Origin: Candidatus Methylomirabilota bacterium
GTDB taxonomy: Bacteria > Methylomirabilota > Methylomirabilia > Rokubacteriales > CSP1-6
NCBI GenBank assembly: GCA_035281625.1
Contig: DATEDO010000219.1
Location: 3,952-67,951, forward strand
DNA length: 64,000 nucleotides
Reading direction: 5' to 3'
Below the pieces are notes generated by a model. It was not told the origin of the DNA. It worked only from the letters and a program-made list of their open reading frames with translations, and ran no database searches. Positions 19,655-53,869 of this stretch are shown here, in pieces. How positions within the stretch are numbered: position 1 is the first letter of the stretch; each line of letters opens with the position of its first letter. The position numbers and the translations under genes are program-made.

Positions 19655-20745
19655 GGCGCCGGCACCAGGGTGAACTCGATCCAGACCTGCTCGCCGGCGG
19701 AGGGCAGCGGGAAGCCGTCCTCCGCGCTGAACACGACGCGCCAGGTGAGCGTCGCGCCCGCTTGCGGCTCATCCGAGCGGTAGTTGGGCGTCACGAACAC
19801 GAGGTTGTGGTTCGGCCGGCAGAGCGACGCCCGATTGTTGGCCGGATCGGGGCCGAGATCGACAGCGCCGTCGGGGGCACTGGCCTCGCCGTGACAGTCC
19901 TGGACCGGCACGCCCTGGCTCCGGACCCGCACGTACTGGGGCGCGATCACCCGCTGCAGGGTGAAGGCGGGATCCATCAGGAGATCCCCCCCGCATTCGT
20001 CCCCCCGACCCTCCATCGGGGGGACGGCGCACGTTCCGACCAGCACGCGCACCTTGCTGACATGCAGCCGGGGGTCGAAGGCCTCCTTCACGGTCGTGGA
20101 GTCGCGGATTCCGCTCCAGAGCCATTCGTCGGAGGCAGCCCCGGGCTGCATGAGGCGAGGAGGCAGCGTGAACTTGCTCGACAGCACGTTGAACCGCACC
20201 GAGGTCCCCGGCTGGCTTGGTACCGGGGGCAGGTCGGGGTACGAGACGTGGGCCAGATAGTCGCCGGTTTCCGACGGCGCGAAGGTCGGAGGGTCGGAGG
20301 TCCCCGCGCAGCCGCTGGAGATGCTGAACCGGGCATCCTCGACCAGCATGTCGGAGTCGATTCGTCGGTGATTCACGGTGACCGACGTTGCGGTTGGGAC
20401 GGTGAACCGGCCGGTCGGGCAGCGGTCCTGCGGCAGACAGAAGTTGCAAGACTGACCGAACCGGATCTCGGGCCAGGTGACGGAGACCGGCGGGGCGGGG
20501 GCGACCCAGTACCGAACCCGCGCGGGAAGGCTCGCCCGGTCGTCGACGAAAGCCGGGACGAAGGTGGCGTCGGTCAGATGCACGCTGCCCGGCGCGAAGT
20601 CGAGCGGCGTCTGCGAAACGCAGGCGATCTGCGAGAGCAGAAGCAGGATGGCGCCGAGCCCGACGACGGCTTCGACCGCGAGGATGCCGCGCGACCGCGC
20701 CGGGGATCCGAGCGCGGCGCGTATGCGCGCGACAGCTGCGATCAT
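19651..20745 (-). CDS. Hypothetical secreted/membrane-anchored Cys-rich protein (364 aa)
   Basis: The ATG at 20743-20745 overlaps the lgt stop (ATGA). An N-terminal hydrophobic segment (ILAVEAVVGLGAILLLLSQIAC) precedes 10 Cys in the mature part. No recognizable family. The ORF-track N-terminal 204 codons overlap lgt out of frame and are Arg-rich, so they are rejected. Confidence 0.6.
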   Translation of the reverse strand: MIAAVARIRAALGSPARSRGILAVEAVVGLGAILLLLSQIACVSQTPLDFAPGSVHLTDATFVPAFVDDRASLPARVRYWVAPAPPVSVTWPEIRFGQSCNFCLPQDRCPTGRFTVPTATSVTVNHRRIDSDMLVEDARFSISSGCAGTSDPPTFAPSETGDYLAHVSYPDLPPVPSQPGTSVRFNVLSSKFTLPPRLMQPGAASDEWLWSGIRDSTTVKEAFDPRLHVSKVRVLVGTCAVPPMEGRGDECGGDLLMDPAFTLQRVIAPQYVRVRSQGVPVQDCHGEASAPDGAVDLGPDPANNRASLCRPNHNLVFVTPNYRSDEPQAGATLTWRVVFSAEDGFPLPSAGEQVWIEFTLVPAP

Positions 20746-30236: not shown

Positions 30237-31422
30237 CTAACCCATCGGATCGACGTCAGGGACGCCGAGGAGGATCTGCCCCAGCCGCTCGTACGCCGAG
30301 TCCGCCACCATGAAGTGCTGGGCGCCGGCGCTGAGATCGCGGAAGCAGCGCTGGAGCACGCCGGAGCGGTAGAGGGCGCCGCCGCCCGCGGCGCGAAAGA
30401 GGCCGGTGACGATCTCCGCCGCGGTCTCGGTGGCATGGACGGCCATGCTCCGCGTCTGGGCCTGCAGGCGGCGATCCGGCATCTGGCCGGCGCTCGCCAC
30501 GCGCCACGCCTCCTCGAAGAGCTCGATGGCCCCGGCCCGGACGGCGCGGAGACGGATCTCGCTCTCGCCCAGTAGCGCCTGATAGCGGGCGCGCCCGGCC
30601 ACGGGGTCGGGCTTGGCCCCCATGCCGCGGTGCTTGGTCGCCGCCAGCTCCAGTGAAGCCTCGAGCGCGCGCCGGGCCACGCCCAGCGCGAAGGCCGCGT
30701 GCTCGTACGCCACGAACGCCGGCATCCCGAGGCGGAAGAGCGCCCCGCCGCGGCGGGGGCGCGTCGCGACGAGATCCCAGGCGAAGTCGGTGGGGACGAA
30801 GAGGTCCTTCACCGAGACGTCGTTGCTGCCGGTGCCCTCGAGTCCCGCCACGCTCCAGTTGTCGTGGATCTCCGCGGCGGAGGCGGGGAACACCGCGACG
30901 TGGCGCGTGCCCGGATCCTGCGCGTCGCGGCGCACCCAGCAGCCGACGGCGAGCCATTCGGCATGGCGCGCGCCGCTGGCGAACGGCCAGCGGCCGGTCA
31001 GGCGGTACCCGCCGTCGACCGGCGTCGCGACGCCGGCGGGGGCGATGGCCACCGCCGCCGTCGGGACGCGGCCATCGGGCATGAGGGCCTTGACCGCGAC
31101 GTCGGGAAGAAAGCCGGCGGGCAGGCCGACGGCCGTGGTCGCCACCATCAGGCACCAGCCGGCGGAGGCGTCGAGACGCGTCACCGCCTCGAGCACCTCG
31201 AGCTGGGTCACGGGATCAGCCTCGATGCCGCCGAGGGATTCCGGCACCTTCAGGGCGAGCAGGCCGGAGTCGCGAAAGGCCTGGACGGTGGCGGGAGGCA
31301 GGGTGCGGAGCCGCTCCCCCTCCTCCGCGCCCGCCGCGAGCACGCCGCCGATGCGCTCGACCGCCTCGAGGAGAGCGGCGCGCCGCGCCGCGCGCTCGCG
31401 TGGAAACGCCGGGGTGGTCAAC
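30237..31422 (-). CDS. Acyl-CoA dehydrogenase family protein (type-2/flavin-dependent monooxygenase-like C-terminal domain)
   Basis: About 395 aa. The ACAD fold extends from N-terminus to C-terminus (…LKVPESLGG…, C-terminal MVADSAYERLGQILLG). The start is uncertain. I propose the TTG at 31420-31422 (LTTPAFPRERAARRAALLE), and the ORF-track extension to 31733 is Arg-rich. Confidence 0.65.
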
Positions 31423-32050
31423 GGCCGGCCGGAACGGAGGCGAGCTCGCGCCACTGCTTGAGCCCGAGGCGCGCGACCACCTCGAAGCCCGTCCCGAGCG
31501 GCCGCACCACGTCGGCCTCGCCTTCCTCCAGATACTGACCGCCCACCAGGCTGTAGTAGGGATAGGCGTGGCCGACGATCACCGTGTTGGCGCCGGTGGC
31601 CACGGGCTCGGCCATCAGCGCGCGGAGGGCCGCATAGCGCTCCGGCGTGCCGGCCGCTCCCCTCCGCTCCACCACCGCCATGGCCTTGTCGGCTCGCCCG
31701 AAGGCCAGCACCGCGGTCTCCACGGTACGACACATGGGGCTCGCCAGCACCGCCCCGATGGGGATCTGCAGCGCCCGGATAGCCTCGCCGATCTGGCGCG
31801 AGTGCTCGCGCCCCTTGTCGGCGAGGGGGCGCTGGTTGGCGCAGTCGTCGAAGCCCTTCATCCGGCGATCGTTCTGACTCCAGTCGGTGTCGCCGTGACG
31901 GAAGTAGATGATGTAGCCGCCCCCGCGCAGCGCGGCCAGGAGGTCGGCGCCGCCGAGCGGCGGGTTCGCCCTGGTCTGGGCGACGAGCGCGGAGGGCGCG
32001 GCGACCGCCAGCGCGACCGCCACTGCTCCCGCGTGCCGCCAGATCCGCAT
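31418..32050 (-). CDS. Histidine phosphatase family protein (phosphoglycerate-mutase-like), exported
   Basis: 210 aa. The signal peptide is MRIWRHAGAVAVALAVAAPSALVAQ. The catalytic RHG is in YFRHGDTDW, with a downstream His (VIVGHAYP). Confidence 0.75.
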   Translation of the reverse strand: MRIWRHAGAVAVALAVAAPSALVAQTRANPPLGGADLLAALRGGGYIIYFRHGDTDWSQNDRRMKGFDDCANQRPLADKGREHSRQIGEAIRALQIPIGAVLASPMCRTVETAVLAFGRADKAMAVVERRGAAGTPERYAALRALMAEPVATGANTVIVGHAYPYYSLVGGQYLEEGEADVVRPLGTGFEVVARLGLKQWRELASVPAGR

Positions 32051-32057
32051 GCGCCGG

Positions 32058-33095
32058 CTACTGCGTGAGGTCGACCAGCACCTTCATGACGGGCCCGCCC
32101 CTGAGCGCCTGCTCCATGCCCTCGCCGAGCGCCTCCAGCGGGATCTTCTTGCTCACCAGCGGGCCCAGCGTGACCGCGCCGGTGGCGCCGAGGCGAATGG
32201 CCTCCTCCCAGGCCTCCCAGGTGTAGAGCCGGCTCGCGTGCATGGTGAGCTCCCGCGAGAACATCGCCAGGAGATTCACCGGCATGGGCTCCGAATGAAT
32301 GGCGACGATGCTGATCGTGCCCCAGACGCGCACCACGTCGGTCATGAGGCGGACGGCCGTGGGATTGCCCGTCACCTCGAAGGCGACGTCCACGCCTTCG
32401 CCGTTGGTCCACTCGGGAATGACCTCGAGCACGTTACGCTCGGGGCCGATGACCTCGAGGCCTAGTCCCTTCAGCATGTCGACGCGGAACGGATTGATCT
32501 CGGCCACCGCGACCCGCGCGCCGCGATGCCGGCACACCATGGCGATGAGCGCGCCGATGGGCCCGCCGCCGAACACGAGCACCGCGTCGCCGGGCTTCAC
32601 CTGGGCGCGGGTGACGTCGTGCGTGGCCACGGCCAGGGGCTCGATGAGGGCGGCGTGGTCGTCGCTCAGCGCGTCGGGCACCTTGAGGAGTCGGTCCACC
32701 GGCACCGGGTAGAGCTCGCGCATGCCGCCGTCCACGTCCACGCCGCGGACCTTCAGGTGGTAGCAGACATAGGACGCGCCCATCTTGCACGCGCGGCACT
32801 CGCCGCAGGACACCACCGGATTGATGACGACGCGGTCCCCCGCGCGCACCGTCGCGCCGGCGGGCGCCTCCACCACCTCGCCGAAGGTCTCGTGGCCGAT
32901 GATGCGGCCCTTGCCCACGCGGGCGTCGAGATGTCCCTCGAAGATGTGGAGATCCGTCCCGCAGATGCCGACCCGGCGCACCCGCAGCAGGGCCTCGCCC
33001 GCGCCGGCCGTCGGGGCCGGTGCGGTACCGGACACGAAGTGTCGGGCGCCCTGATAGAACTGCGCGCGGATGGTCTTCGCCGGGGTCGCCGTCAT
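32058..33095 (-). CDS. Zinc-dependent medium-chain dehydrogenase/reductase (MDR; sorbitol/threonine-dehydrogenase-like)
   Basis: 345 aa from the ATG at 33093-33095, with GGAGG 7 nt upstream. The catalytic Zn site is GICGTDLH, the structural Zn site is CGECRACKMG...C, and the NAD fold is VLVFGGGPIG. The upstream ORF-track extension overlaps caiB-like. Confidence 0.85.
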   Translation of the reverse strand: MTATPAKTIRAQFYQGARHFVSGTAPAPTAGAGEALLRVRRVGICGTDLHIFEGHLDARVGKGRIIGHETFGEVVEAPAGATVRAGDRVVINPVVSCGECRACKMGASYVCYHLKVRGVDVDGGMRELYPVPVDRLLKVPDALSDDHAALIEPLAVATHDVTRAQVKPGDAVLVFGGGPIGALIAMVCRHRGARVAVAEINPFRVDMLKGLGLEVIGPERNVLEVIPEWTNGEGVDVAFEVTGNPTAVRLMTDVVRVWGTISIVAIHSEPMPVNLLAMFSRELTMHASRLYTWEAWEEAIRLGATGAVTLGPLVSKKIPLEALGEGMEQALRGGPVMKVLVDLTQ

Positions 33096-34234
33096 GACCG
33101 GGCCTCCTTCACGCCGCGGATCTCCGCGTTGTGCTCGCCAAGCGTGGGCGGCGCGCGGCGGATCCTCGGCTTCTCGCCGTCGAAGTTGAGCGGCAGGGCC
33201 ACCAGGTCGAGATTGTCCGCGCCGGGCACGGGCTGGAGCATGCCGGTGGCCTTGGTCTGCGGGTGCTCCACGATCTCGGGCAGGGAATGAATGGGCGCGC
33301 AGGGCACGCCGGCCGCCTCGAGGATGTCCACCCACTCGCCCTTGGTGCGAGTGGCGATGATCTCGCGGATCCTGCCGAGCAGCTCGGCCTTGTTGGTGGA
33401 GCGCCCGGTGTTCTTCGCGTAGCGCGGATCCGTGGCCCATTCCGGGTGTCCCAGGGCGCCGGCGAGCTTGGCGAAGAGGCGGTCGTTGCCGGCGGCGATG
33501 ATGATCTCGCCGTTCTTCGTCTCGAAGCCCTCGAAGGGGATGAGGCGGCTCGAGCCGGTGCGGTGGCGCACCGGCACCTCGCCGGAGATGCGATACGAGG
33601 CATAGTGGCCGGTGAGCCAGCCCAGCGCGGTCTCCAGCAGGGAGGCGTCCACCACACAGCCCTTGCCGGTGCGGCCGCGCTGGATCAAGCCGGCGAGCGC
33701 GCCCATGGCCGCCCACATGCCGGTGCCGAAATCGAGGATGGAGGTCCCGATGCGGGTGGGCGGACTGTCCTCGTCGCCGTTCATGGCCATGAGGCCGGAG
33801 AACGCCTGCACCATGGGCTCGAAGCCGGGGTTGAGCTTGAGCGGGCCGGTGCGCCCGAGCGCCCAGATCGCGGCATAGATCAGGCGCGGGTTCTTCTGCA
33901 GCATCACGTCCGAGCCGAGGCCCAGCTCCTCCATCGCGCCCGGCCGCATGTTGTGGACGAGCACGTCGGCGCGCGTCACCTCGTCCAGGAGCCAGGCAAC
34001 GTCCTTCGGGTCCTTGAGATCCAGCGTGATTCCGCGCTTGTCCGAGTTCATGGCGAGATACGCGGGGGACACCCCGTTCCAGAAAGGCGGCCCCCAGCCA
34101 CGCGCGTCGTCACCCTCGGGGCGCTCGACCTTGATGACGTCGGCGCCCATGCGGGCGAGAATGCCCGCGGCGAACGGCCCCGCGAAGGCGCCGCCCAGCT
34201 CGATCACGCGAATGCCCTCGAGCGGCAGGGCCAT
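33092..34234 (-). CDS. Family III CoA-transferase (CaiB/BaiF/alpha-methylacyl-CoA racemase family)
   Basis: 380 aa. The N-terminus is LEGIRVIELGGAFAGPFAAGILARMGADVIKVE, and the catalytic Asp region is conserved. The stop overlaps the MDR start (ATGA). Confidence 0.85.
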   Translation of the reverse strand: MALPLEGIRVIELGGAFAGPFAAGILARMGADVIKVERPEGDDARGWGPPFWNGVSPAYLAMNSDKRGITLDLKDPKDVAWLLDEVTRADVLVHNMRPGAMEELGLGSDVMLQKNPRLIYAAIWALGRTGPLKLNPGFEPMVQAFSGLMAMNGDEDSPPTRIGTSILDFGTGMWAAMGALAGLIQRGRTGKGCVVDASLLETALGWLTGHYASYRISGEVPVRHRTGSSRLIPFEGFETKNGEIIIAAGNDRLFAKLAGALGHPEWATDPRYAKNTGRSTNKAELLGRIREIIATRTKGEWVDILEAAGVPCAPIHSLPEIVEHPQTKATGMLQPVPGADNLDLVALPLNFDGEKPRIRRAPPTLGEHNAEIRGVKEARS

Positions 34235-34238
34235 GGGC

Positions 34239-35111
34239 TCAGGCCTCCGGCGCCGGGGTGAAGCGGTGGCCGCCGTCCTTCTTCACGATGAAGCCGGGGC
34301 GGGGAAAGTGAGCCGCGCACACCAGCACGCCGGAGTCCGCCATCTGCTCCACGAAGGCCTTGCGCGTGCGCGCGGCGTGGGCCATGTCGGTGCAGAACCG
34401 GCTCGACCACTGGGGCTCGGCCACCTGCACCACGCGGTGCATGAGGTCGCCGGAGAAGACGGCCTCGCCCGCCGTGGTGGTGAGGCGCACGCAGGAATGG
34501 CCCGGGGTGTGGCCGTGCGAGGGCTCGAAGCGGAGATGCTCGTCCACCCTGAACGTCTCGTCCACGAGCAGGGCCTTGCCCGCCTCCATGATGGGCGCCA
34601 CGCTGTCGGTGAAGCAGCCGGAGGCGTCACGCCCCGCCTCCTGCTCGCGCTTCCAGTATTCGAACTCGGAGCCCACCATCACGTACTTCGCGTTGGGGAA
34701 GGTCGGTACCCACGTGCCCTCGACGAGGCGCGTGTTCCAGCCCACGTGGTCCACGTGCAGATGGGTGCAGAGGACGAAATCCACCCCCTCGGGGCGGACG
34801 CCGGCGGCGCGGAGGTCGTCGAGATAGGTGCCGTGCTTCTTGTTCCAGGCGGGCACCTCGTGGCGCTCCTTGTCGTCGCCCACCCCGGTGTCGATGACCA
34901 CGGTGTGCTTCGGGGTCTTCACCACGTAGGACTGGATGCGCGAGCCCATGTCGCCGGTGGTGTCGTCCCAGAAGTCGGGCTTGAGCCAGCCGTGATGCCG
35001 CGCGATGGCGTCGGCGCTGGAGTCCGGGAGCATGGACGGCGTGGGGTTGTACGAGCGCGGGATCTCGATCACGCGGGTGATGGTGACGTCGGCGAGACGG
35101 GTAGTCGGCAT
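34239..35111 (-). CDS. MBL-fold metallo-hydrolase (lactonase/AttM-AiiB-like)
   Basis: 290 aa. The motif is HLHVDHVGW (HxHxDH), with downstream H and D ligands. Confidence 0.8.
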   Translation of the reverse strand: MPTTRLADVTITRVIEIPRSYNPTPSMLPDSSADAIARHHGWLKPDFWDDTTGDMGSRIQSYVVKTPKHTVVIDTGVGDDKERHEVPAWNKKHGTYLDDLRAAGVRPEGVDFVLCTHLHVDHVGWNTRLVEGTWVPTFPNAKYVMVGSEFEYWKREQEAGRDASGCFTDSVAPIMEAGKALLVDETFRVDEHLRFEPSHGHTPGHSCVRLTTTAGEAVFSGDLMHRVVQVAEPQWSSRFCTDMAHAARTRKAFVEQMADSGVLVCAAHFPRPGFIVKKDGGHRFTPAPEA

Positions 35112-35146
35112 GCATTCACCTCATGGGTCGACAAAACAGTCGGTGG

Positions 35147-36202
35147 TCACCGTGCCGTCAGCATCGGCCAGAGGGCCTGCGATCCCCGCGCCGCCACCTC
35201 GCGGCCCAGGCGCTCCGCCCAGTGACCCTCCGCGCCGAACTCCGCGCGCCACGACCAGAGCCGTCGCGTGACGAAGTGCAGGGTGTGCTCGTAGGTGAAG
35301 CCGATGGCTCCGTGGGCCTGATGCGCGATGCCGGCGCCCAGCCCCGCCGCCTCACCCACGCGGATCTTGGCGCAAGCGATCTCGAAGGCGGCGTCGCCCT
35401 TCTCCATGGCGTGGAAGGCGGCCTGAGCGGCCATGCCCGCCGCCGCGGTGTGGCCGGCGAGCAGCGCCAGGTTCTGCTGAATCACCTGGAACGTGGAGAG
35501 GGGCTTGCCGAACTGCTTGCGCTCACTCACGTACTTGACCGACTGGGAGAGCAGGAACTCGAGGCCGCCCGCCATCTGCGCCGAGCGCGCCAGGGCCCCG
35601 CCGAGCCAGAGCGAGTCCGGCTGCAGGCTGTCGGAGGCGCCGGCGGCGGCCACCGCGGCGTTGGACCAGGTGAGGGTGTCGCGCGGCTCGAGCGCGAGAT
35701 TGGTGTCGGGCTCGACCTTGGCGGCGCCGCCGGCGACGCGCGCCACCATGAGCTTCCCGCCGCTCTCCGCCAGCGCCACCACGTGCTTGGCGCTGCGCCC
35801 CCACGGCACGCGCGCCGCGGTGCCGCTGAGCGCCCAGCCGCCACCATTCCGAGAAATGGACAGGCGCTCGCCCGCCTGCGTCGGCGCGACCGTGATCGGC
35901 CCCATCGGTACGTCGAGCCCGGACGATGCGAGGAGCCACGCGCCCAGCATGGTCTCCGCGATGGGCAGGGGAACGGCGAAGCGGCCCGCCGCGCTCAGCA
36001 CCACCTGGGCATGGTCCCAGGTGCCGCCGGCGCCCCCGTGCGTCTCGGGGATCTGCGGCAGGGTGAGGCCGCCTTCCTCCACCGCCTGCCAGAGATCGTC
36101 TGGCCACTGGCCCTTCTCGGTGGACTCGATCAGCGCGGGCGTCACCCGGTCGGTGAAGAGCCGCGTGCAGGTGTCCGCCAGCAGCGTGCGCATCTCGTCC
36201 AT
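35147..36202 (-). CDS. Acyl-CoA dehydrogenase family protein (probable second subunit of a heteromeric acyl-CoA dehydrogenase)
   Basis: About 351 aa. The start is chosen at the ATG at 36200-36202, which has GGGAGAGG upstream. The alternative start is 36235. The ACAD C-terminal helical domain is present, but the sequence is divergent and lacks an obvious catalytic Glu context. Confidence 0.65.
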   Translation of the reverse strand: MDEMRTLLADTCTRLFTDRVTPALIESTEKGQWPDDLWQAVEEGGLTLPQIPETHGGAGGTWDHAQVVLSAAGRFAVPLPIAETMLGAWLLASSGLDVPMGPITVAPTQAGERLSISRNGGGWALSGTAARVPWGRSAKHVVALAESGGKLMVARVAGGAAKVEPDTNLALEPRDTLTWSNAAVAAAGASDSLQPDSLWLGGALARSAQMAGGLEFLLSQSVKYVSERKQFGKPLSTFQVIQQNLALLAGHTAAAGMAAQAAFHAMEKGDAAFEIACAKIRVGEAAGLGAGIAHQAHGAIGFTYEHTLHFVTRRLWSWRAEFGAEGHWAERLGREVAARGSQALWPMLTAR

Positions 36203-36278
36203 GTCAGGACCTCTCCCGTAGTGCAACGCGGTCATTTACCATGTTCGCTCGCCTCGCCTTCGGCTGCGGCTCGCCAAG

Positions 36279-37430
36279 CTATCTCAGACCCAGCCCGCGG
36301 GCGATGATGCCGCGCAGGATCTCGCGCGTGCCGCCGCGGAGGGAGAAGGACGGGGCGTGCTGGACGAGATAGCCGAGGGTCTTCTCGAACTCGCTGCCGG
36401 TGTCGAGATGCGGCTCGGCGCCGATCAGCGCGTGCACCAGCTCGGGGATCTCCTGCTCGAACGTGGTGCCGACGTCCTTGACCACGGACGCCTCGAGGTT
36501 GGGGCTCTTGCCCGCCTGGAGCATGGCCGCTACCGACAACGACATTTGACGAAGCGTGTTGAGGTGCGCGGTGAGCCGGCCCACCAGCACCGCGGCGCGC
36601 TCGCCCGGCTCCTTGCCGACCTCGTTGATCAGCTCCAGGACCAATCTGATCGAGGAGAGATACCGCTCGGGGCCGCTGCGCTCGAAGCCCAGCTCGGTGG
36701 TGACCTGCTTCCAGCCGTCGCCCTCCTTACCCACGCGCGCGTCCTCGGGGACGAAGGCGTCCTCGTAGTGCACCTCGTTGAAGTGGTGCCCACCCGCGAG
36801 GTCGTAGATGGGCCGGATGGTGATACCCTTGGTGTTCTTCAAGTCCACGAGGAACTGCGAGAGGCCCTCGTGCTTCTTGTCCGGCACCACCTGGGTGCGG
36901 AACAGCGAGATGGCGAAGTCGGAGAGATGCGCGTTGCTGGTCCAGATCTTGGTGCCGTTGACCTTGTAGCCGCCCGGCACCTTCTCGGCGCGGGTGCGGA
37001 TGGAGGCGAGGTCCGACCCGGAGTCGGGCTCGCTCATGCCGATGGCGAAGGACAGCTCCCCGCGCGTGATGGGCGGGAGGAAGCGCTGGCGCTGCTCCTC
37101 GGTGCCGAAGCGGAGGAGCAGCGGGCCGGACTGCCGGTCGGCCACCCAGTGGAAGCTGACCGGCGCGCCCGCGGCGAGCGTCTCCTCCAGCACCACGTAG
37201 CGCTCCAGGAACGAGCGCTCGTGGCCTCCGTACTTCTTGGGCCAGGTCATGCCGATCCACCCCTTGGCGGCGAGCTTCTTCGAGAACTCGGGATGGTGCC
37301 CGCCCCAGGTGCGCGGCCGCTCCTCGGTGGAGAGCTTGGGCAGCTCGGTGCGGAGGAAGTCGCGCACCTCCTGGCGGAGCGTTTCCGCCTCGGGCGGCAG
37401 CTCGTGCAGCTCGAAGTTGAAGGTGGCCAT
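36279..37430 (-). CDS. Acyl-CoA dehydrogenase
   Basis: 383 aa from the ATG at 37428-37430, with AGGAGA upstream. ACAD N, middle beta and C domains are present (…GMSEPDSGSDLASIRTRAEK…, C-terminal GGTREILRGIIARGL). Confidence 0.85.
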   Translation of the reverse strand: MATFNFELHELPPEAETLRQEVRDFLRTELPKLSTEERPRTWGGHHPEFSKKLAAKGWIGMTWPKKYGGHERSFLERYVVLEETLAAGAPVSFHWVADRQSGPLLLRFGTEEQRQRFLPPITRGELSFAIGMSEPDSGSDLASIRTRAEKVPGGYKVNGTKIWTSNAHLSDFAISLFRTQVVPDKKHEGLSQFLVDLKNTKGITIRPIYDLAGGHHFNEVHYEDAFVPEDARVGKEGDGWKQVTTELGFERSGPERYLSSIRLVLELINEVGKEPGERAAVLVGRLTAHLNTLRQMSLSVAAMLQAGKSPNLEASVVKDVGTTFEQEIPELVHALIGAEPHLDTGSEFEKTLGYLVQHAPSFSLRGGTREILRGIIARGLGLR

Positions 37431-37446
37431 GGACTCTCCTGCGGGC

Positions 37447-38223
37447 CTAGCGGCCCTTGAAGGCGGGCTTGCGCTTCTCGAGCATGGCGGCGGCGCCTTC
37501 CTTGGCGTCCTCACTTCGCTGAGCTTGGCGCGCCAGCTCGTCGATGTCCTCGTGGGGGATCTGCTCGCGGAGCGAGATCATGCGCCGGATGGCGAGCTTC
37601 ATGCCGGCCAGCGACAGGGGGGCGTTCTCGGCGATCTGCCGCGCCAGATCATCGGTGACCTTCTCGATCTCGGCCGGCGGCACGAGCTGGTGCACCATGC
37701 CGATCTCGTAGGCGCGCTTGGCGTCGATGAGCCGGCCGGTGAAGAGGAGATGCCGCGTGTGCGCAGGGCCGAGGACCTCCACCAGCTTCTGGCCGAGCGC
37801 AAAGGGGACGAGCAGGCCGATGCGCGCCAGCGGCATGCCGAAGCGCGCGCCCTCGGCGGCCACGCGCAGGTCGCAGTGCAGCGCCAGCTCACAGCCGCCC
37901 GCCACCGCGTCCCCGTGCACCATCGCGATGGTGGGGTGCCGGGACCGTTCGACCCGCTGAAGCACCTGCGTGACTCCGCTCTCGGGATCGCCCTTGGGGT
38001 CGTCCTGACGCTGGCGCATCTCGCGGAGGTCCATGCCGGAGCAGAACGCCGGCCCCTCGCCGCGAATCACCACCACGCGCACGTCGGGGTTCTTGTCGAG
38101 CGCCTCCATGTGCTCGACCAGCCCGTTGAGCATGGCGCGATTCATCGCGTTGCGCCGATCGGGGCGGTTCATGGTCAGTGTCGCGACCCCGGCTTCGACT
38201 CGCAGCTTCAGCTCTTCGGTCAT
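37447..38223 (-). CDS. Enoyl-CoA hydratase/isomerase (crotonase superfamily)
   Basis: 258 aa from the ATG at 38221-38223. Motifs include FCSGMDL and AMVHGDAVAGGCELALHCD. Confidence 0.85.
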   Translation of the reverse strand: MTEELKLRVEAGVATLTMNRPDRRNAMNRAMLNGLVEHMEALDKNPDVRVVVIRGEGPAFCSGMDLREMRQRQDDPKGDPESGVTQVLQRVERSRHPTIAMVHGDAVAGGCELALHCDLRVAAEGARFGMPLARIGLLVPFALGQKLVEVLGPAHTRHLLFTGRLIDAKRAYEIGMVHQLVPPAEIEKVTDDLARQIAENAPLSLAGMKLAIRRMISLREQIPHEDIDELARQAQRSEDAKEGAAAMLEKRKPAFKGR

Positions 38224-38338
38224 GCGACGCCCTCTGTTGTCTGGAGCTGGGGGGGAGCGGGGGCCGCTCCTCCCCCAGACCCCCCCACCCACTCCTGTGC
38301 TGGAGACGAGAGGCGACGGAACATCCGCCCGCGTGTCG

Positions 38339-39502
38339 TCATCGCAGCAACTGCCGCGCGATCACCATGCGGTGCACTTCGCTGGGCCCCTCGCCGATGC
38401 GGCGCACGCGCGCCTCGCGGTACCAGCGCTCCAGAGGGAACTCCTTGGATACGCCGTAGCCGCCGTGGATCTGCACGGCGGCGTCGATGACACGGCCAAG
38501 CACCTCGCTCGAGTAGAGCTTGGCCATGGAAGCCTCCACGCGCGCGTCCTCGCCGCGGTCCGCCTTCCACGCGCCCGACCAGATGATCCAGCGGCAGGCG
38601 CGCAGCTCCACCTCGGCGTCCGCGAGCATCCACTGGATGGCCTGGCGCTGGGCCAGGGGCTGCCCGAAGGTGGAGCGCTGCTTGGCATGCGCGATGGCCA
38701 TGCGATGGGCCGCCACCGCCACGCCGAGATTGCACGCGGAGTAGGGGAAGCGGTTCTTCACCAGGAGATCGAAGGCGAGATCGAGGCCCTGGCCCTCGGC
38801 GCCGACCAGCGCGTCCCCGGGCAGCACGCAGTCCTCGAACACCACGTCGTTGGGGCGGGCGGCGGTCCGGATGACCTTGATCTCGCTGGCGTGAAAGCCC
38901 GGCGTGCCATGCTCCACCACGAAGCAGGAGATGCCGGCGCGGCCCTTGCCCTTGTCGGTGCGGGCGAACACCACGCCCCATGGCGCGTCGTGGGCGCGCG
39001 AGATGAAGACTTTTCGCCCGTTGAGCACCCACGTGTCTCCGCGCTTCTCCGCGCGCGTCTGAATGGCGCCGGCGGGATCGGAGCCGCCGGAGGGCTCGGT
39101 GATGGCGAAGAAGGTCTGCCAGCCCTCGCGAATGGTGGGGATCGCGTACTTCTCGATCTGGGCCTTGGTCCCCGCCCAGATCGCCGGCGGCGGATAGCGG
39201 CCGAACACACCGCAGCCGGGCACGTAGAGCCCCATGCGGTGCTGCGACATCTCCTCGAGCGCCACGCACATGCCGAAGGTGTCGAGCCCGCCGCCGCCGT
39301 ACTCCTCGCGCGCGCCCAGCGCCCAGAGGCCGGCGGCCTTCGTCATGTCGGAGAGGCGCTTCTCGTCGTCGGGCGCCAGCTCCTCGGCGTCGGGATCGAC
39401 GCGCTGCTCGGCGGGGATGATCTCGTCCTGGACGAATCGGCGGATCTGCTCTGCGAGCATCCGCAATTCGTCGGGAAGGGTATAGCCGGGGAACGACGGC
39501 AT
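38339..39502 (-). CDS. Acyl-CoA dehydrogenase
   Basis: 387 aa. Segments include FAITEPSGGSDPAGAIQTRAEKRGDTWVLNGRKVFIS and the C-terminal IHGGYGVSKEFPLERWYREARVRRIGEGPSEV. Confidence 0.85.
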   Translation of the reverse strand: MPSFPGYTLPDELRMLAEQIRRFVQDEIIPAEQRVDPDAEELAPDDEKRLSDMTKAAGLWALGAREEYGGGGLDTFGMCVALEEMSQHRMGLYVPGCGVFGRYPPPAIWAGTKAQIEKYAIPTIREGWQTFFAITEPSGGSDPAGAIQTRAEKRGDTWVLNGRKVFISRAHDAPWGVVFARTDKGKGRAGISCFVVEHGTPGFHASEIKVIRTAARPNDVVFEDCVLPGDALVGAEGQGLDLAFDLLVKNRFPYSACNLGVAVAAHRMAIAHAKQRSTFGQPLAQRQAIQWMLADAEVELRACRWIIWSGAWKADRGEDARVEASMAKLYSSEVLGRVIDAAVQIHGGYGVSKEFPLERWYREARVRRIGEGPSEVHRMVIARQLLR

Positions 39503-39523
39503 CGGACGCTCCGGAGCGGAGGG

Positions 39524-39925
39524 CTAGTCGTACGGCTCGCGGTGACGCATCTCCACGAAGAGCCCGTGGCACTCCCGCGGGTGCACCCACGCGATCTTGT
39601 CACCACGTTGATCGACGCGCACGCCTTCCTTGCGGAGATGAGCGGACGCGGCCGCGACGTCTTTCGTTTCGAAGCCCACCAGGTACACGCCCTCGCCGTG
39701 CTTGGCGAGGAAGCGCCCGGCGGCCTTGTCGGGGTCCGTGGGCATGAGCAATTCGATGTGGCCGGCGCCCAGGGGGAGGATGGCGCTCTTGAAGCCGAAC
39801 TCCTTGGAGTCCAGCCGGTGATGCTCTTTCAGGCCGAACAGGCGCTCATAGCGCGCCACGGCCTCGTCGAGGTCGCGAACGACCACGGTCAGCTCGATCA
39901 CGTCGCCCAGCACCGGGGAGGCCAT
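39524..39925 (-). CDS. VOC/glyoxalase-family protein (methylmalonyl-CoA epimerase-like)
   Basis: 133 aa from the ATG at 39923-39925 (MASPVLGDVIELTVVVRDLDEAVARYERLFGL). The ORF-track start 36 nt upstream is also possible. Confidence 0.7.
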   Translation of the reverse strand: MASPVLGDVIELTVVVRDLDEAVARYERLFGLKEHHRLDSKEFGFKSAILPLGAGHIELLMPTDPDKAAGRFLAKHGEGVYLVGFETKDVAAASAHLRKEGVRVDQRGDKIAWVHPRECHGLFVEMRHREPYD

Positions 39926-40014
39926 ATCCACTAGACTGTGCAGGGACTTTACCCGAATCACGACACGCCCACAACCCCGCCGGGTTCGCCCCGGCGAACC
40001 GGAGAGAGGACGCC

Positions 40015-41019
40015 ATGGCCGCCCGGACGCGCTGGTCCCTGTCGGTGCCGCAGGACGGTTTCACCCTCGCCGAGCACGCGGCTCTCGCCCGCGAGGCGGA
40101 GGGATGGGGCTACACGGACTGCTGGTCGTTCGAGTCGGACGGCCTGGACTGCTTCTCGCCCCTCGCCGTCGTCGGCGCGGCCACGAATCTGCGCCTCGGC
40201 ACCGCCATCGCCAATGTCTACACGCGCGGTCCGGCCACCCTGGCGCAGTGCGCCGCCGGCCTCGCCGAGATCGCCCCCGGCCGCTTCATCCTGGGCGTGG
40301 GCTCCGGCTCGCAGGTCATCATCGAGAAGTGGAACGGCGGCCGCTTCGAGAAGCCCGCCACCCGCGTGCGCGAGATGGTGCGGTTCCTGCGCCAGGCCCT
40401 CGCCGGTGAGCGCGTCGTCTTCAAGGGAAAGACCTTCGAGGTGGACGGCTTCCGCCTCACGAAGCCGCCGTCGAAGCCCGTTCCCATCTACGTGGCCGCC
40501 CTCCGTCCCGGGATGTTGAAGGTCGCCGGCGAGGTGGCGGACGGCGTCATCCTGAACTGGCTCGCGCCCGAAGACGTGCCGAAGTCGGTGAAGGTGGTGC
40601 GTGAGGCGGCGGAGAGGTCCGGGCGCGATCCCCATTCGATCGAGATCACCGCGCGCATCTTCGTGAACCTCGACCCCGTCACGCCGGATTCGGAGCTGGC
40701 GGTGCGCCGCCACGTGGCCGGCTACCTCAACGTGCCCGTGTACCGTCACTTCCAGGAGTGGCTTGGCCGCACCGAGGCGCTGTCGGCGATGTGGCGGGCA
40801 TGGGAGGCCGGCGACCGGAAGGCCGCCGTCGCCGCCATCCCCCAGGGCCTGCTGGACGATCTCTTCACGCGGGGCCCGCTGCCCGAGATCCGCACGCGGC
40901 TCATTCGTTACTTCGACGCGGGGCTCGAGACCGCGTTCCTCGCCCTGTCGACCACCGAGCCCGACCCCGCGCGCAAGCAGGCCATCGTCCGCGAGGCCCT
41001 GCGGGTCATCGCATCCTAG
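40015..41019 (+). CDS. LLM-class (luciferase-like) flavin/F420-dependent oxidoreductase
   Basis: 334 aa. The pattern is a TIM-barrel LLM (…GFTLAEHAALAREAEGWGYTDCWSFE…LGTAIANVYTRGPATLAQ…). The F420-dependent subclass is suggested but not proven. Confidence 0.75.
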   Translation: MAARTRWSLSVPQDGFTLAEHAALAREAEGWGYTDCWSFESDGLDCFSPLAVVGAATNLRLGTAIANVYTRGPATLAQCAAGLAEIAPGRFILGVGSGSQVIIEKWNGGRFEKPATRVREMVRFLRQALAGERVVFKGKTFEVDGFRLTKPPSKPVPIYVAALRPGMLKVAGEVADGVILNWLAPEDVPKSVKVVREAAERSGRDPHSIEITARIFVNLDPVTPDSELAVRRHVAGYLNVPVYRHFQEWLGRTEALSAMWRAWEAGDRKAAVAAIPQGLLDDLFTRGPLPEIRTRLIRYFDAGLETAFLALSTTEPDPARKQAIVREALRVIAS

Positions 41020-51014: not shown

Positions 51015-51036
51015 GCCGCGCCTCCCGTCCGCCGGA

Positions 51037-52566: not shown

Positions 52567-52569
52567 GGA

Positions 52570-53781: not shown

Positions 53782-53869
53782 GCGGCGTCTCCGGGCCCCA
53801 TGCTGTCGCGATTCATCGGCCGATCATACGTCCGACCCCCGTCTTTCCTGTCACCTATTGGATCAGAGG

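Follow-up and report, generated by a model that had tools for sequence, protein, structure and literature searches.

A probable CoA-dependent catabolic operon with a predicted alpha2beta2 ACAD at its core in a soil bacterium of the Methylomirabilota

The locus belongs to a soil-dwelling member of the Methylomirabilota (Rokubacteria), an uncultured phylum, and the window, i.e., the whole 64-kb stretch of the MAG that was analysed, was searched for pathway genes. Within 32058-39925, GC3-based frame analysis and translation identify eight genes, all co-directional on the minus strand and read from the VOC-fold protein to the MDR dehydrogenase. Together with Pfam searches, this confirms the gene number, the shared orientation and the domains given in a preliminary description of the region. 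These genes and their neighbours are listed below.

30237..31421, minus strand: ACAD-fold group-D flavin monooxygenase (Pfam Acyl-CoA_dh_2 and Acyl-CoA_dh_N)
31418..32050, minus strand: histidine-phosphatase-superfamily protein, 210 aa (Pfam His_Phos_1, 4e-9)
32058..33095, minus strand: MDR Zn-dependent dehydrogenase, 345 aa (Pfam ADH_N and ADH_zinc_N)
33092..34234, minus strand: family-III CoA-transferase, 380 aa (PF02515, 2e-116, full length)
34239..35111, minus strand: MBL-fold hydrolase, 290 aa (Pfam Lactamase_B, 4e-27)
35147..36202, minus strand: ACAD beta subunit, 351 aa, putative non-catalytic partner (only ACAD N and C Pfam domains detected)
36279..37430, minus strand: ACAD alpha subunit, 383 aa, predicted to be catalytic (ACAD N and M Pfam domains strong, C weak)
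37447..38223, minus strand: crotonase-superfamily protein, 258 aa (Pfam ECH_1, 3e-55)
38339..39502, minus strand: ACAD3, 387 aa, complete (all three ACAD Pfam domains)
39524..39925, minus strand: VOC-fold protein, 133 aa, first gene of the operon (Pfam Glyoxalase_4, 2e-18)
39926..40014, no strand: divergent control region, 89 bp
40015..41019, plus strand: luciferase-like oxidoreductase (LLM), F420-dependent class, Rv3093c subfamily (Bac_luciferase, 5e-64)
41057..42421, plus strand: MATE-family efflux transporter (Pfam MatE, 4e-50), downstream of the LLM gene

Because the intergenic distances are small (-4 to 115 nt), ATGA and TTGA overlaps occur, and the operon scan returned no more terminator-like matches than expected by chance, the minus-strand genes most likely form a single operon of ten genes running from 39925 to 30237, which adds the histidine phosphatase and the Rv3094c-like flavin monooxygenase to the eight genes above. 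The CoA-dependent catabolic cluster first proposed is borne out as an operon, and the reported ATGA, in which the stop of the CoA-transferase overlaps the start of the MDR dehydrogenase (translational coupling), is present. The histidine phosphatase lies inside the operon, 7 nt from the MDR gene; it has a signal-like N-terminal sequence and a PRK06193-type NCBIfam match below the cut-off (1e-34), and is present in the related loci L008 and L009 only. The monooxygenase is probably the final operon gene, and its candidate TTG start overlaps the preceding stop (TTGA). Its best PDB match is Rv3094c (7f70, 6e-54), followed by HsaA, XiaF and HPAH C2, and its identity across L006-L009 is 75-77%.

The control region between the operon and the conserved, divergent LLM gene contains a perfect 8-bp inverted repeat (39983-39990 and 39993-40000). 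The region is mostly kept in L006, L007 and L009, and the repeat is absent from L008. A consensus promoter scan of 39926-40014 found no promoter; we infer that TTGTGG-N17-TAAAGT, in the same interval, is a promoter-like element. The LLM can be assigned to the F420 type because it scores above the cut-off of NCBIfam TIGR03841 (270.5 bits against 213.65) and because its best PDB matches are all F420 enzymes (F420-dependent Mer, 1e-33, fHMAD, FGD and Adf). F420 biosynthesis is encoded by Rokubacteria (PMC8498797). The MATE gene stands beside the LLM gene only in L006-L009, and it is uncertain that the transporter is part of the system. The reach of the operon to 30237, the divergent LLM gene and the non-canonical crotonase described below are all absent from the preliminary description.

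The two adjacent ACADs find their best PDB matches in the two halves of the same enzymes: alpha in IpdE1 Tcur3483 (6wy9/6wy8_B, 1e-45) and ChsE4 (4x28_A, 4e-45), beta in IpdE2 Tcur3481 (6wy8_A, 9e-14) and ChsE5 (4x28_D, 1e-8). Motif loss in the two proteins is complementary, with SEPxxGSD and W-T-S in alpha only, R.QFG and Q.HG..G in beta only, and all of them in ACAD3. Across the alpha family, SEPxxGSD and RGGT are found in 55/55 members and R.QFG and Q.HG..G in none of the 55, while the beta family has R.QFG in 49/49, Q.HG..G in 48/49 and SEPxxGSD in 0/49. In addition, the Pfam ACAD middle domain has no match in beta. Alpha Glu250 ('GFERSG'), a Glu kept in at least 50 of 55 members, aligns with ChsE4 Glu247, and beta has no Glu at either known catalytic position. 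Beta Glu321 ('RAEFG'), one residue ahead of the canonical catalytic column, is invariant, which counts against the reading set out below. The earlier contrast between a canonical ACAD and a divergent one lacking the catalytic Glu consequently holds for beta, but alpha is itself specialised, having lost half of the FAD-contact motifs.

Alpha lies directly upstream of beta in all 70 related loci with sufficient upstream sequence, an adjacency that exceeds chance. Natural alpha-beta fusion proteins also exist (P0255 and P0256, the former verified as an uninterrupted gene), with a precedent in the fused CasC. At least 585 species genomes encode relatives of beta, in a clade that is overwhelmingly Methylomirabilota, and the beta sequence matches that of NCBI protein P0001, from a MAG of this phylum, at 100% identity. 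Conservation is high in both subunits (for beta, column identity averages 78%). With a pLDDT of 54, the beta model from AlphaFold is too poor for inspecting the geometry. The paired PDB matches, the complementary motifs, Glu250, the adjacency and the fusions strongly support the prediction, already made for this locus, that alpha and beta form an alpha2beta2 heteromeric FAD ACAD, all the sequence-level hallmarks of which are present. Alpha would provide the pocket for the substrate, the motifs that bind the isoalloxazine and, in Glu250, the catalytic base, and beta would provide only contacts to the ADP-ribose of the alpha-bound FAD. Each alpha-beta dimer would then have a single active site, as is the case for ChsE4-ChsE5 and IpdE1-IpdE2. 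This motif split agrees with the published roles of the two subunits in alpha2beta2 ACADs (PMC11153573, PMC8399759). This enzyme type has been studied so far mainly in steroid-degrading bacteria, and the ACAD of the operon is a sound but fairly ordinary fresh example of it. Alpha Pro90, a Pro kept in at least 53 of 55 members, is the counterpart of ChsE4 Pro89 and LCAD Pro132, the proline in helix E that makes the pocket larger, which suggests that the alpha-beta enzyme accepts a bulky substrate.

The third ACAD of the operon is presumably an SCAD/MCAD/Bcd-like homotetramer with a canonical catalytic Glu371 ('IGEGP'). Its best PDB matches are 1ukw and 5ol2 (~3e-69), and all cis and trans FAD motifs as well as the C-terminal Glu are found in 18/18 orthologs. 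Of the two catalytic Glu residues, the crotonase keeps the first (E112, 'GGCELAL') and has Leu132 ('GMPLARIG') in place of the second, where alignment to the 'GLPEINLG' of 5zai gives a Glu to Leu change. The second Glu is absent from all 16 members of the family examined. The protein is not a canonical two-Glu hydratase, and simple hydration is doubtful. The chemistry of the crotonase superfamily is diverse (PMC3660561), and the top NCBIfam matches are below their cut-offs, e.g., EchA19 with 210 bits against 400. The VOC protein is nearest to methylmalonyl-CoA epimerase (PDB 6wf6/6xbs, 3e-19; TIGR03081, 73 bits against 114.95) and is presumed to be an acyl-CoA epimerase or isomerase; the epimerase motif 'GEGVHHIAF' reads 'GEGVYLVGF' in every ortholog.

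The CoA-transferase had been described as racemase-type. This assignment was rejected, because the best PDB match is SUGCT (9br6, 1.5e-72, 248 bits), with Asp168 ('ILDFGTG') aligned to the catalytic Asp of its 'MTDLATG', while racemases match at ~1e-28 (~103 bits to MCR). The enzyme is instead predicted to be SUGCT/YfdE/Frc-like and to activate the acid substrate; it scores 261 bits against the 750-bit cut-off of the NCBIfam succinate-glutarate CoA-transferase. The MBL hydrolase, which carries an HxHxDH motif at residue 117, appears lactonase-like, in the clade of methyl-parathion hydrolase, dihydrocoumarin hydrolase and AHL lactonases (AncDHCH1 5hif, 3e-22, then MPH and AHL lactonases; NCBIfam AidB lactonase, 84 bits against 360). 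The MDR enzyme is threonine/sorbitol-dehydrogenase-like (TDH 2dfv, 6e-48). None of the eight proteins of the 32058-39925 block reaches an NCBIfam equivalog cut-off, in line with the earlier decision to leave the substrate unassigned.

Among related loci, alpha and beta are the only universally linked genes. The LLM, VOC, ACAD3, crotonase, MBL and CoA-transferase genes are each found in 31-50% of the 42 fully flanked loci. The LLM gene (19/42) is, with VOC, the most widely kept non-ACAD partner; VOC is directly upstream of alpha in ~20 Rokubacteria loci, and MBL is downstream of beta in 14/42. The conserved module places LLM and crotonase on one strand and ACAD3, alpha, beta, sometimes MBL, and CoA-transferase on the other; in a second layout, LLM is co-transcribed with crotonase. 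Elsewhere, the position of MBL downstream of beta is occupied by an enolase-superfamily (MR/MLE) gene, and in some relatives the alpha-beta pair adjoins either a FadB-type hydratase/dehydrogenase or SDR, crotonase and ACAD beta-oxidation genes. Because these partners vary, some of the genes may serve other steps or substrates in other genomes. The MDR and monooxygenase genes are found only in the four nearest relatives.

We therefore consider it rather probable that the locus is a CoA-dependent catabolic operon, with an alpha2beta2 ACAD core and a divergent F420-type LLM, acting on a bulky, branched or dicarboxylate-like acid. The acid, possibly released beforehand from a lactone by the MBL hydrolase or, alternatively, first oxidised by the MDR enzyme and the Rv3094c-like monooxygenase, would be loaded onto CoA by the SUGCT/YfdE-type transferase. 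The alpha2beta2 enzyme would then create a 2,3-double bond in an acyl-CoA that is bulky, branched or carries a second carboxylate. The crotonase with its single Glu could handle the enoyl or hydroxyacyl intermediate together with the F420-type LLM or the MDR enzyme, ACAD3 could act downstream or in parallel on a smaller acyl-CoA, and the VOC protein could set the configuration at C2. The operon genes alone do not make up a full turn of beta-oxidation, because thiolase, 3-hydroxyacyl-CoA dehydrogenase of the usual type, ETF and acyl-CoA ligase are absent from the 64-kb window. The substrate is most plausibly bulky, branched or dicarboxylic and may derive from a lactone; a substituted dicarboxylic acid, an alicyclic acid or one of isoprenoid type is the leading, though not established, candidate.

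The lack of thiolase and ligase in the window would also suit a Cai/Bai-like CoA shuttle without chain shortening, in which the transferase moves CoA from product to substrate and the thioester undergoes dehydration, isomerisation or epimerisation (crotonase, VOC) and oxidation or reduction (ACADs, LLM) before the free acid is released. CaiA, CaiB and CaiD of the cai operon have their counterparts here in an ACAD, a family-III CoA-transferase and a crotonase, and the missing second Glu of the crotonase suits an isomerase or dehydratase-type role. However, such a shuttle is unlikely, as the Cai equivalog models are far under cut-off (CaiB, 75 bits against 413; CaiA, 152 against 540), three ACAD genes exceed its needs, the related transferases SUGCT, YfdE and Frc take succinyl-, acetyl- or formyl-CoA as external donor, and the alpha-beta pair stands beside beta-oxidation genes in some relatives.

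A comparably low probability is given to conversion of an alicyclic acid or lactone by pimeloyl-CoA-type dicarboxylate beta-oxidation, in which the MDR enzyme and the monooxygenase oxidise a ring alcohol or ketone, MBL opens the lactone, and the acid or diacid is activated by CoA transfer and then dehydrogenated by a PimCD-like alpha2beta2 enzyme. The top NCBIfam match of alpha is indeed the PimC large subunit (1e-51), beta matches the PimD small subunit, ACAD3 matches cyclohexanecarboxyl-CoA dehydrogenase models and MDR matches 6-hydroxycyclohex-1-ene-1-carbonyl-CoA dehydrogenase (1e-27). The dicarboxylate-enzyme relatives of the CoA-transferase, the lactonase clade of MBL and the MR/MLE gene found elsewhere in its place point the same way. 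Nevertheless, the curated cut-offs are far off (PimC, 176 against 624; PimD, 53 against 653; CHC-CoA dehydrogenase, 195 against 650), the locus lacks a thiolase as well as an aldehyde dehydrogenase and a ring hydrolase (Oah/BadI type), the LLM falls in the F420 hydride-transferase clade and not among FMN Baeyer-Villiger LLMs, and conservation of the MDR and monooxygenase genes ends with the closest relatives.

The steroid or bile-acid module initially suggested finds little room in these data. It would have an alpha2beta2 ACAD like ChsE4-ChsE5 or IpdE1-IpdE2 act on a steroid side-chain or HIP-type ring C/D CoA ester, with the crotonase in an EchA19-like role and an Rv3094c/HsaA-like monooxygenase acting on the ring. 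Of the solved structures, those of steroid enzymes are closest to alpha and beta, a proline of the ChsE4 Pro89 type is present in alpha, EchA19 ranks among the top matches of the crotonase and the monooxygenase also matches HsaA (2rfq, 7e-31). Yet identity to the steroid enzymes is only ~30%, the non-steroid PimC model scores equally well, the monooxygenase is much closer to Rv3094c than to HsaA, and acid activation is by a dicarboxylate-type CoA-transferase and not a steroid-CoA ligase. Homologs of KshA, KstD, HsaC, ChsH/MaoC, Ltp2/Sal, FadA5-type thiolase, FadD ligase and cyp125 are absent from the 64 kb, as are any genes for ring cleavage or for a thiolase, aldolase or ligase. Degraders using the 9,10-seco steroid route are known from Actinobacteria and Proteobacteria only (PMC5790920), and none is known in the phylum of the host. 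Similarly, the comparison with the bai operon that had been advised yields only the CoA-transferase superfamily in common. A steroid pathway is thus very unlikely, and the substrate is most probably something other than a steroid.

Finally, that the adjacent ACADs are independent enzymes, one possibly inactive or regulatory, in a loose set of paralogous beta-oxidation genes is already disfavoured and deserves almost no credence: high-GC soil genomes do carry many ACAD paralogs and the neighbours other than alpha and beta differ among genomes, but neither subunit alone has full FAD contacts, and the invariable adjacency, the fusions, the high conservation of both subunits and the tight operon packing speak against it.

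The window has a G+C content of about 70% and its raw ORF lists are crowded with shadow frames; one coding frame per stretch was chosen by third-position GC (GC3). In these frames, and with Pfam, eight consecutive genes lie on the minus strand between 32058 and 39925, limits that correspond to the stop codon of the MDR gene and the ATG of the VOC gene. The eight co-directional genes of the preliminary description were thus recovered, all its domain calls agree with Pfam, and the ATGA overlap between the CoA-transferase stop and the MDR start is present. Gaps among the eight genes range from -4 to 115 nt, with 76 nt between the two adjacent acyl-CoA dehydrogenase (ACAD) genes, here called alpha and beta. 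The unit is larger than first reported and most likely includes two more minus-strand genes that follow directly downstream.

Genes of the operon in order of transcription, and the divergent gene (window positions)
39524-39925, minus strand: VOC-fold protein (VOC), first transcribed
38339-39502, minus strand: ACAD3, a complete ACAD, second
37447-38223, minus strand: crotonase, third
36279-37430, minus strand: ACAD alpha, fourth
35147-36202, minus strand: ACAD beta, divergent in sequence, fifth
34239-35111, minus strand: MBL-fold hydrolase (MBL), sixth
33092-34234, minus strand: family-III CoA-transferase, seventh
32058-33095, minus strand: MDR Zn-dehydrogenase (MDR), eighth
31418-32050, minus strand: histidine-phosphatase-superfamily protein with a signal-peptide-like N-terminus, 7 nt after the MDR gene
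30237-31421, minus strand: ACAD-fold monooxygenase, Rv3094c-like, with a TTG start overlapping the preceding stop codon (TTGA)
40015-41019, plus strand: luciferase-like oxidoreductase (LLM), divergently oriented 89 bp from the VOC gene and followed by a MATE transporter gene

Two elements mark the 89-bp divergent control region (39926-40014). One is a perfect 8-bp inverted repeat, GGTTCGCC/GGCGAACC, at 39983-40000, located 15 nt ahead of the LLM start; the other, on the VOC side, is a conserved TTGTGG-N17-TAAAGT element upstream of that gene. The region is kept in three related loci (L006, L007 and L009) and the inverted repeat is deleted in a fourth (L008). No regulator gene adjoins it. A promoter and terminator scan returned no promoter-like match and three terminator-like matches, against 2.7 expected from shuffled sequence. 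The outer flanks are unrelated and encode a gamma-glutamyltranspeptidase, a DHDPS-family protein, a GntR-aminotransferase regulator, a thioredoxin-like protein and RND efflux genes. The histidine phosphatase sits within an otherwise cytoplasmic acyl-CoA operon and is present in two of the four closest loci.

The closest structures of alpha are IpdE1 (Tcur3483, 6WY8/6WY9; 1e-45) and ChsE4 (4X28_A; 4e-45), with all homotetrameric ACADs ranking lower, and the best full-length matches of beta are IpdE2 (Tcur3481; 9e-14), at the top, and ChsE5 (4X28_D; 1e-8). Each gene therefore pairs with the corresponding subunit of both structurally characterised alpha2beta2 enzymes. Alpha, beta and ACAD3 were aligned with their orthologs by MAFFT and the motifs that contact FAD were counted.

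Census of FAD motifs in alpha (n=55), beta (n=49) and ACAD3 (n=18) with their orthologs
SEPxxGSD (cis, isoalloxazine side): alpha 55/55, beta 0/49, ACAD3 18/18
W-T-S (cis): alpha 54/55, beta 0/49, ACAD3 17/18
R.QFG (trans, ADP-ribose side): alpha 0/55, beta 49/49, ACAD3 18/18
Q.HG..G (trans): alpha 0/55, beta 48/49, ACAD3 18/18

As aligned, the decay of the FAD motifs is complementary in alpha and beta. Beta is predicted to supply the FAD ADP-ribose contacts that alpha lacks, the role published for beta subunits (PMC11153573). Alpha has 'RGGT' in place of the catalytic 'EGT' of MCAD-type enzymes, and its E250 ('GFERSG'), kept in at least 50 of 55 orthologs, aligns with Glu247 of ChsE4 ('NHER'); ACAD3 keeps the canonical Glu371 ('IGEGP'). 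Beta has no Glu at the helix-G column or at the canonical C-terminal column, bearing out the earlier observation of a divergent ACAD without an obvious catalytic Glu. One residue ahead of the canonical column, Glu321 of beta, within 'RAE[FY]G', is conserved in 48 of 49 orthologs; IpdE2 has a Ser at this position. Because beta is devoid of the cis FAD motifs, we do not think that Glu321 is a catalytic base. Retention of the catalytic Glu by both ACADs, part of the outcome that had been named as speaking against the pairing, was not observed at these two columns. Finally, alpha Pro90 ('GAPVS'; at least 53 of 55 orthologs) aligns with ChsE4 Pro89 ('GAPVP'). The equivalent helix-E proline (LCAD Pro132) unwinds helix E and widens the pocket for bulky substrates (PMC11153573), hence Pro90 may be a hint of an enlarged pocket in alpha.

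Gene organisation points in the same direction. In all 70 related loci with at least 1.3 kb of upstream sequence, a same-strand alpha lies directly upstream of beta. Two natural fusions, P0255 (750 aa) and P0256 (677 aa), both representatives of 50%-identity clusters, carry an alpha-like half at the N-terminus and a beta-like half at the C-terminus. In P0255 these span residues 18-378 (40% identity to alpha, 7e-86) and 387-733, and its gene (L088:7001-9253) is an uninterrupted ORF on a 65-kb contig. AlphaFold2 prediction of beta from a 14-sequence alignment recovered the helix/beta/helix domain order with a mean pLDDT of 54 and a pTM of 0.48, too poor for a fold search. By every criterion that can be read from sequence, the pair belongs to the alpha2beta2 ACAD family, and alpha and beta very probably form such a heteromer. 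The pairing presumed in the preliminary description is upheld at this level by the paired structural matches, the motif decay, the constant adjacency and the fusions. That alpha and beta work as two independent ACADs is scarcely credible given the same observations.

The gene for P0255 is neighboured by an ABC transporter, an SDR, a crotonase, two ACADs, an APH-family kinase and an MDR dehydrogenase.

At 100% identity, beta matches the NCBI protein P0001, encoded on a 110-kb contig of a 'Methylomirabilota bacterium' MAG. P0001 starts 11 codons after the 362-aa beta ORF, giving 351 aa; the longer ORF had no match in an exact-sequence look-up. The best 120 homologs of beta are all at least 67% identical and originate from metagenomes of soil and groundwater and from Rokubacteria MAGs. 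When one genome per species was scanned, at least 585 loci with a beta relative were found, almost all in Methylomirabilota/Rokubacteria, with a small number assigned to Alphaproteobacteria (Parvibaculum, Minwuiaceae), Chloroflexia, Binatia or Dormibacterota by their labels. A library of 50%-identity representatives contains 1,621 members of the family at E <= 1e-30.

For synteny, twelve window proteins were compared by tblastn with 85 related loci and neighbouring ORFs were clustered separately. Because GC3 ORF calling on these loci yields antisense shadow ORFs (clusters c19, c22 and c32), the synteny counts rest on tblastn. Four layouts recur.

Gene layouts around the alpha-beta pair
Layout A (window and L006-L009, 88-98% identical): one strand with MATE and LLM; the other with VOC, ACAD3, crotonase, alpha, beta, MBL, CoA-transferase, MDR, the monooxygenase and, before the latter in some loci, the histidine phosphatase
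Layout B (about 18 loci): one strand with crotonase and LLM; the opposite strand with ACAD3, alpha, beta, CoA-transferase and, between the last two in some loci, MBL
Layout C (about 20 loci): sometimes LLM, then VOC, alpha, beta, an enolase-superfamily (MR/MLE) gene and another VOC-like gene
Layout D: FadB-type hydratase/dehydrogenase and FMN-dependent alpha-hydroxy-acid dehydrogenase beside alpha and beta, plus an ABC transporter

Among 42 fully flanked loci, VOC was found in 21, LLM in 19, CoA-transferase in 15, ACAD3 and MBL in 14 each and the crotonase in 13, while MDR, monooxygenase and MATE were each restricted to four, the closest ones. From these counts and layouts, alpha and beta are therefore an obligate pair, VOC and LLM are its commonest companions, and CoA-transferase, ACAD3, crotonase and MBL form a frequent extension of the set; the MDR and monooxygenase genes are recent gains in the window's own lineage. 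In Layout B, the LLM and crotonase genes are co-transcribed, lying on the same strand and either overlapping or 10 nt apart.

A tblastn search of plasmids found only relatives at about 50% identity or below, including on a Cupriavidus megaplasmid, the record of which is unannotated, and in Azospirillum brasilense. In the latter (L086, plasmid NZ_CP059451, 9956-29005), the ~50%-identical pair is arranged in the order beta then alpha, next to a crotonase, a CaiB-type CoA-transferase, two MR/MLE genes, a branched-chain-type ABC transporter and an IclR regulator. Since A. brasilense is cultured, it offers an organism in which the substrate of the pair could be sought.

Two of the related loci show peculiarities. 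L006 (DATJFY010000121.1) is labelled 'Verrucomicrobiia bacterium' and carries the entire operon, with proteins 88-97% identical to those of the window and of Rokubacteria MAGs; the label is probably a binning or labelling error. In L016, the VOC-alpha segment occurs twice, at ~8225-8833 and 15263-15742, about 7 kb apart and with equal identity, reflecting either a recent duplication or an assembly artefact.

The CoA-transferase matches PF02515 over its full length (residues 5-369 of 380, 2e-116). Its best structural match is the succinate-glutarate type enzyme SUGCT (9BR6; 1.5e-72, 248 bits), with the catalytic Asp of which ('MTDLATG') its Asp168 ('ILDFGTG') aligns. As judged by these matches, it is a true transferase of the SUGCT/YfdE/Frc type. 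Its score against the succinate-glutarate model NF052585 is 260.8 bits vs a cut-off of 750. SUGCT is its closest relative only, and the nearest named families use dicarboxylates. The enzyme had been described as a CaiB/BaiF/racemase-type CoA-transferase, of which the family-III assignment stands on PF02515 and Asp168. An alpha-methylacyl-CoA racemase was considered and rejected, racemases scoring ~103 bits (1e-28) vs 248 bits for SUGCT; such an identity would have suited the 25S/25R problem met by a ChsE4-like enzyme.

The MBL hydrolase has the full HxHxDH...H...D...H set of metal ligands (motifs HLHVDH, GHTPGH, GDLMH and AAHF). Its nearest relatives are dihydrocoumarin and AHL lactonases and methyl parathion hydrolase (3e-22), and the best NCBIfam lactonase model scores 83.7 bits vs a cut-off of 360; it may be a thioesterase or another hydrolase instead of a lactonase. 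The MDR enzyme resembles threonine and sorbitol dehydrogenases in sequence. For the VOC protein, called epimerase-like in the preliminary description, the VOC fold is confirmed by Pfam and an identity as methylmalonyl-CoA epimerase is not: this enzyme is its nearest relative (3e-19), yet TIGR03081 scores 73 bits vs a cut-off of 114.95, and the 'GEGVHHIAF' of the epimerase (MCE, 6wf6) reads 'GEGVYLVGF' in all VOC orthologs, with the loss of one usual metal-site His. The first metal-binding His lies just ahead of the aligned block and would pair with the invariant Glu11. The protein, whose family precedes alpha in about 20 genomes, may therefore not be a canonical metal-dependent epimerase.

The crotonase belongs to its fold family (ECH_1, 3e-55) and keeps the first catalytic Glu (E112), while the second is replaced by Leu132 ('GMPLARIG' vs 'GLPEINLG' in 5ZAI) in 16 of 16 family members. 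In rat enoyl-CoA hydratase, Glu144 and Glu164, the latter corresponding to the Leu132 column, are both important for catalysis, and the crotonase superfamily also isomerises, decarboxylates and hydrolyses, among other reactions (PMC3660561). Because the second Glu is lost and the chemistry of the superfamily is diverse, the name enoyl-CoA hydratase is unsafe, and the gene probably does not encode a plain hydratase.

The LLM scores 270.5 bits against TIGR03841 (LLM class F420-dependent oxidoreductase, Rv3093c family), above the cut-off of 213.65, and its best structural matches are all F420 enzymes: Mer, hydroxymycolic acid dehydrogenase (fHMAD), FGD and Adf. It is accordingly predicted to be an F420-type enzyme of the Rv3093c subfamily. 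A camphor-type FMN Baeyer-Villiger monooxygenase was considered and rejected, every strong match being an F420 hydride transferase. According to a review of F420, the genes for its biosynthesis are encoded in Rokubacteria and there is no experimental study of F420 function outside Actinobacteria (PMC8498797). The last gene of the operon is closest to the group-D flavin monooxygenase Rv3094c of Mycobacterium tuberculosis (7F70, 6e-54), with HsaA, XiaF and HPAH-C2 less close. Rv3093c and Rv3094c of M. tuberculosis share a transcript and have been put forward as a two-component flavin monooxygenase (PMC9904262); Rv3094c sulfoxygenates ethionamide. The window likewise encodes a member of each family, but the two genes are separated by about 9 kb, mark the two ends of the operon and differ in strand. 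The LLM is widely conserved, whereas the monooxygenase is limited to the four closest loci. That both are present in so distant a phylum is a hint that the two families are functionally linked.

As read from its genes, the locus is a tightly packed operon whose core encodes an alpha2beta2 FAD dehydrogenase, with one predicted active site per dimer, together with a genuine CoA-transferase. CoA transfer would activate the acid substrate, and the alpha2beta2 enzyme would then form a 2-enoyl-CoA from a bulky, branched or carboxylate-bearing acyl chain, to be taken on by the one-Glu crotonase and the F420-type LLM. A role of the LLM resembling that of a 3-hydroxyacyl-CoA dehydrogenase, or as an enoyl-reductase, is conceivable because the F420-dependent LLMs fHMAD, Adf and FGD are secondary-alcohol/ketone oxidoreductases. 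ACAD3 might act on a smaller acyl-CoA and the VOC protein might epimerise C2. The acid may come from, or interconvert with, a lactone, as suggested by the MBL hydrolase, in the place of which Layout C has an MR/MLE enzyme. For the lineage of the window, an upstream oxidation by the MDR dehydrogenase and the Rv3094c-like monooxygenase is also possible.

Several known systems resemble parts of this scheme. Pimeloyl-CoA dehydrogenase (PimC/PimD), encoded in the pim operon of Rhodopseudomonas palustris, is a two-subunit enzyme with a dicarboxyl-CoA substrate outside steroid metabolism. PimC (TIGR03204) is the best NCBIfam match of alpha, PimD (TIGR03203) is among the best for beta, and the CoA-transferase that accompanies the window pair belongs to a dicarboxylate type. 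However, the scores fall far below the equivalog cut-offs (175.8 vs 623.85 bits for alpha, 53 vs 652.7 bits for beta), and the CoA ligase, thiolase and hydratase/dehydrogenase of the pim operon have no counterpart in the window operon. Degradation of alicyclic or pimeloyl-type acids by the cluster is unlikely.

No thiolase, ETF, ligase or classical 3-hydroxyacyl-CoA dehydrogenase was found among the GC3-supported genes of the 64 kb by Pfam. Either genes located elsewhere provide these steps, or the pathway shuttles CoA and leaves the chain at its original length. Such a shuttle would be of the Cai type. Both the cai (CaiA, CaiB, CaiD) and bbs (BbsEF, BbsG, BbsH) systems use the same trio of ACAD, CoA-transferase and crotonase superfamilies on a CoA-activated organic acid, and the CoA-transferase shows detectable similarity to BbsE and BbsF (9fn0; 1e-41 and 1e-31). 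Neither has a heteromeric ACAD, though, and the window operon has no counterparts of CaiC, CaiE and CaiT or of BbsAB and BbsCD. No equivalog cut-off is reached, neither that of CaiB (NF002914, 74.8 vs 413 bits) nor that of CaiA (NF002885, 151.8 vs 540 bits). A Cai-like shuttle is about as improbable as the pimeloyl-type reading.

A bolder version of the proposed scheme joins the alpha2beta2 ACAD and the Rv3093c-type LLM with the one-Glu crotonase and the VOC protein in a new F420-coupled route resembling beta-oxidation, which would be specific to Methylomirabilota and widespread there (at least 585 species genomes have the pair). The LLM would replace the NAD-dependent 3-hydroxyacyl-CoA dehydrogenase or work as an enoyl reductase, and the substrates might be bulky acids of soil origin, for instance of isoprenoid, hopanoid or substituted dicarboxylic type. 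This version is speculative, and we hold it to be distinctly unlikely. If true, it would assign the first physiological role to F420 outside Actinobacteria and Archaea and provide a non-steroid function for the ChsE/IpdE-type ACAD architecture.

Steroid or bile-acid catabolism, modules of which the cluster had been thought to resemble, is very improbable. The pair does share with ChsE4-ChsE5 (FadE26-FadE27; 4X28) and IpdE1-IpdE2 (6WY8/6WY9) the adjacency of the genes, the isoalloxazine motifs, helix-G Glu and helix-E proline of alpha, and a beta subunit without catalytic Glu that would give the ADP-ribose contacts. On the other hand, identity is only ~30%, beta Glu321 has no counterpart in IpdE2, and the host phylum is Methylomirabilota, with no steroid genes near. 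The partners also differ: a dicarboxylate-type CoA-transferase, VOC, F420-type LLM, lactonase-like MBL and one-Glu crotonase here, FadD ligases, ChsH/Ltp2, Hsd4A and FadA5 in the steroid systems. Pfam searches of the GC3-supported genes in the 64-kb window detected no KshA, KstD, HsaC, ChsH/MaoC hydratase, Ltp2/Sal aldolase, FadA5 thiolase or steroid-CoA ligase, nor BaiB/CD/E/H. The comparison with steroid (cho/KstR, cas, scd) and bai neighbourhoods that had been suggested thus revealed no co-location, with neither ring nor side-chain genes in 64 kb. The source and nearly all relatives are Methylomirabilota/Rokubacteria MAGs, a phylum without known steroid degraders, the known aerobic ones belonging only to Actinobacteria and Proteobacteria (PMC5790920). 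A last parallel is the steroid ACAD CasC of Rhodococcus jostii RHA1, in which two domains are fused; its halves form one unit with one catalytic Glu, and the single-chain relatives P0255 and P0256 can be compared to it. In CasC the catalytic domain is C-terminal (PMC8399759), unlike the N-terminal catalytic alpha-like half of P0255 and P0256, and in the window the halves are separate genes.

The search for a characterised pathway matching the operon in composition (LLM, one-Glu crotonase, VOC, CoA-transferase and MBL) found none; the lack of such a match is common among the catabolic clusters of uncultured bacteria. To our knowledge, the characterised alpha2beta2 ACADs come almost only from steroid-degrading Actinobacteria and Proteobacteria. 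Alpha-beta is among the best-conserved catabolic gene pairs of Methylomirabilota, an abundant uncultured soil phylum in which no steroid degraders are known, and it comes with its own recurring partners: VOC, the F420-type LLM, the one-Glu crotonase, the dicarboxylate-type CoA-transferase and the lactonase-like hydrolase. Knowledge of the substrate would give Rokubacteria, whose physiology is poorly known, a further carbon source and would test whether this ACAD architecture is a general answer to bulky or doubly charged acyl-CoAs. It could also provide F420 with its first physiological role outside Actinobacteria. Should the substrate be an ordinary branched or dicarboxylic acid, the outcome would be a routine pathway annotation.

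Elsewhere in the window, a second crotonase (5420-6280, minus strand) and a CCG-domain protein (6274-7284, plus strand) lie near a molybdopterin oxidoreductase (1291-3594, plus strand) and a Peripla_BP_6 binding protein (282-1526, plus strand), and 1291-7284 may be another acyl-CoA-related locus. Between 11159 and 15617, about 4.5 kb hold no GC3-supported gene and the longest ORF has no Pfam match; the AT skew is strongly negative there, and the segment adjoins the gene of a 1,383-aa FG-GAP-repeat protein (15617-19768). On the minus strand, 49332-60232 encodes two Asp-Al_Ex/TrkA_C permeases, a sodium/glutamate symporter, an NMT1-like binding protein and a 1,010-aa Orn/Lys/Arg decarboxylase, then an OprD-family porin, and looks like an amino-acid decarboxylation/antiport locus.
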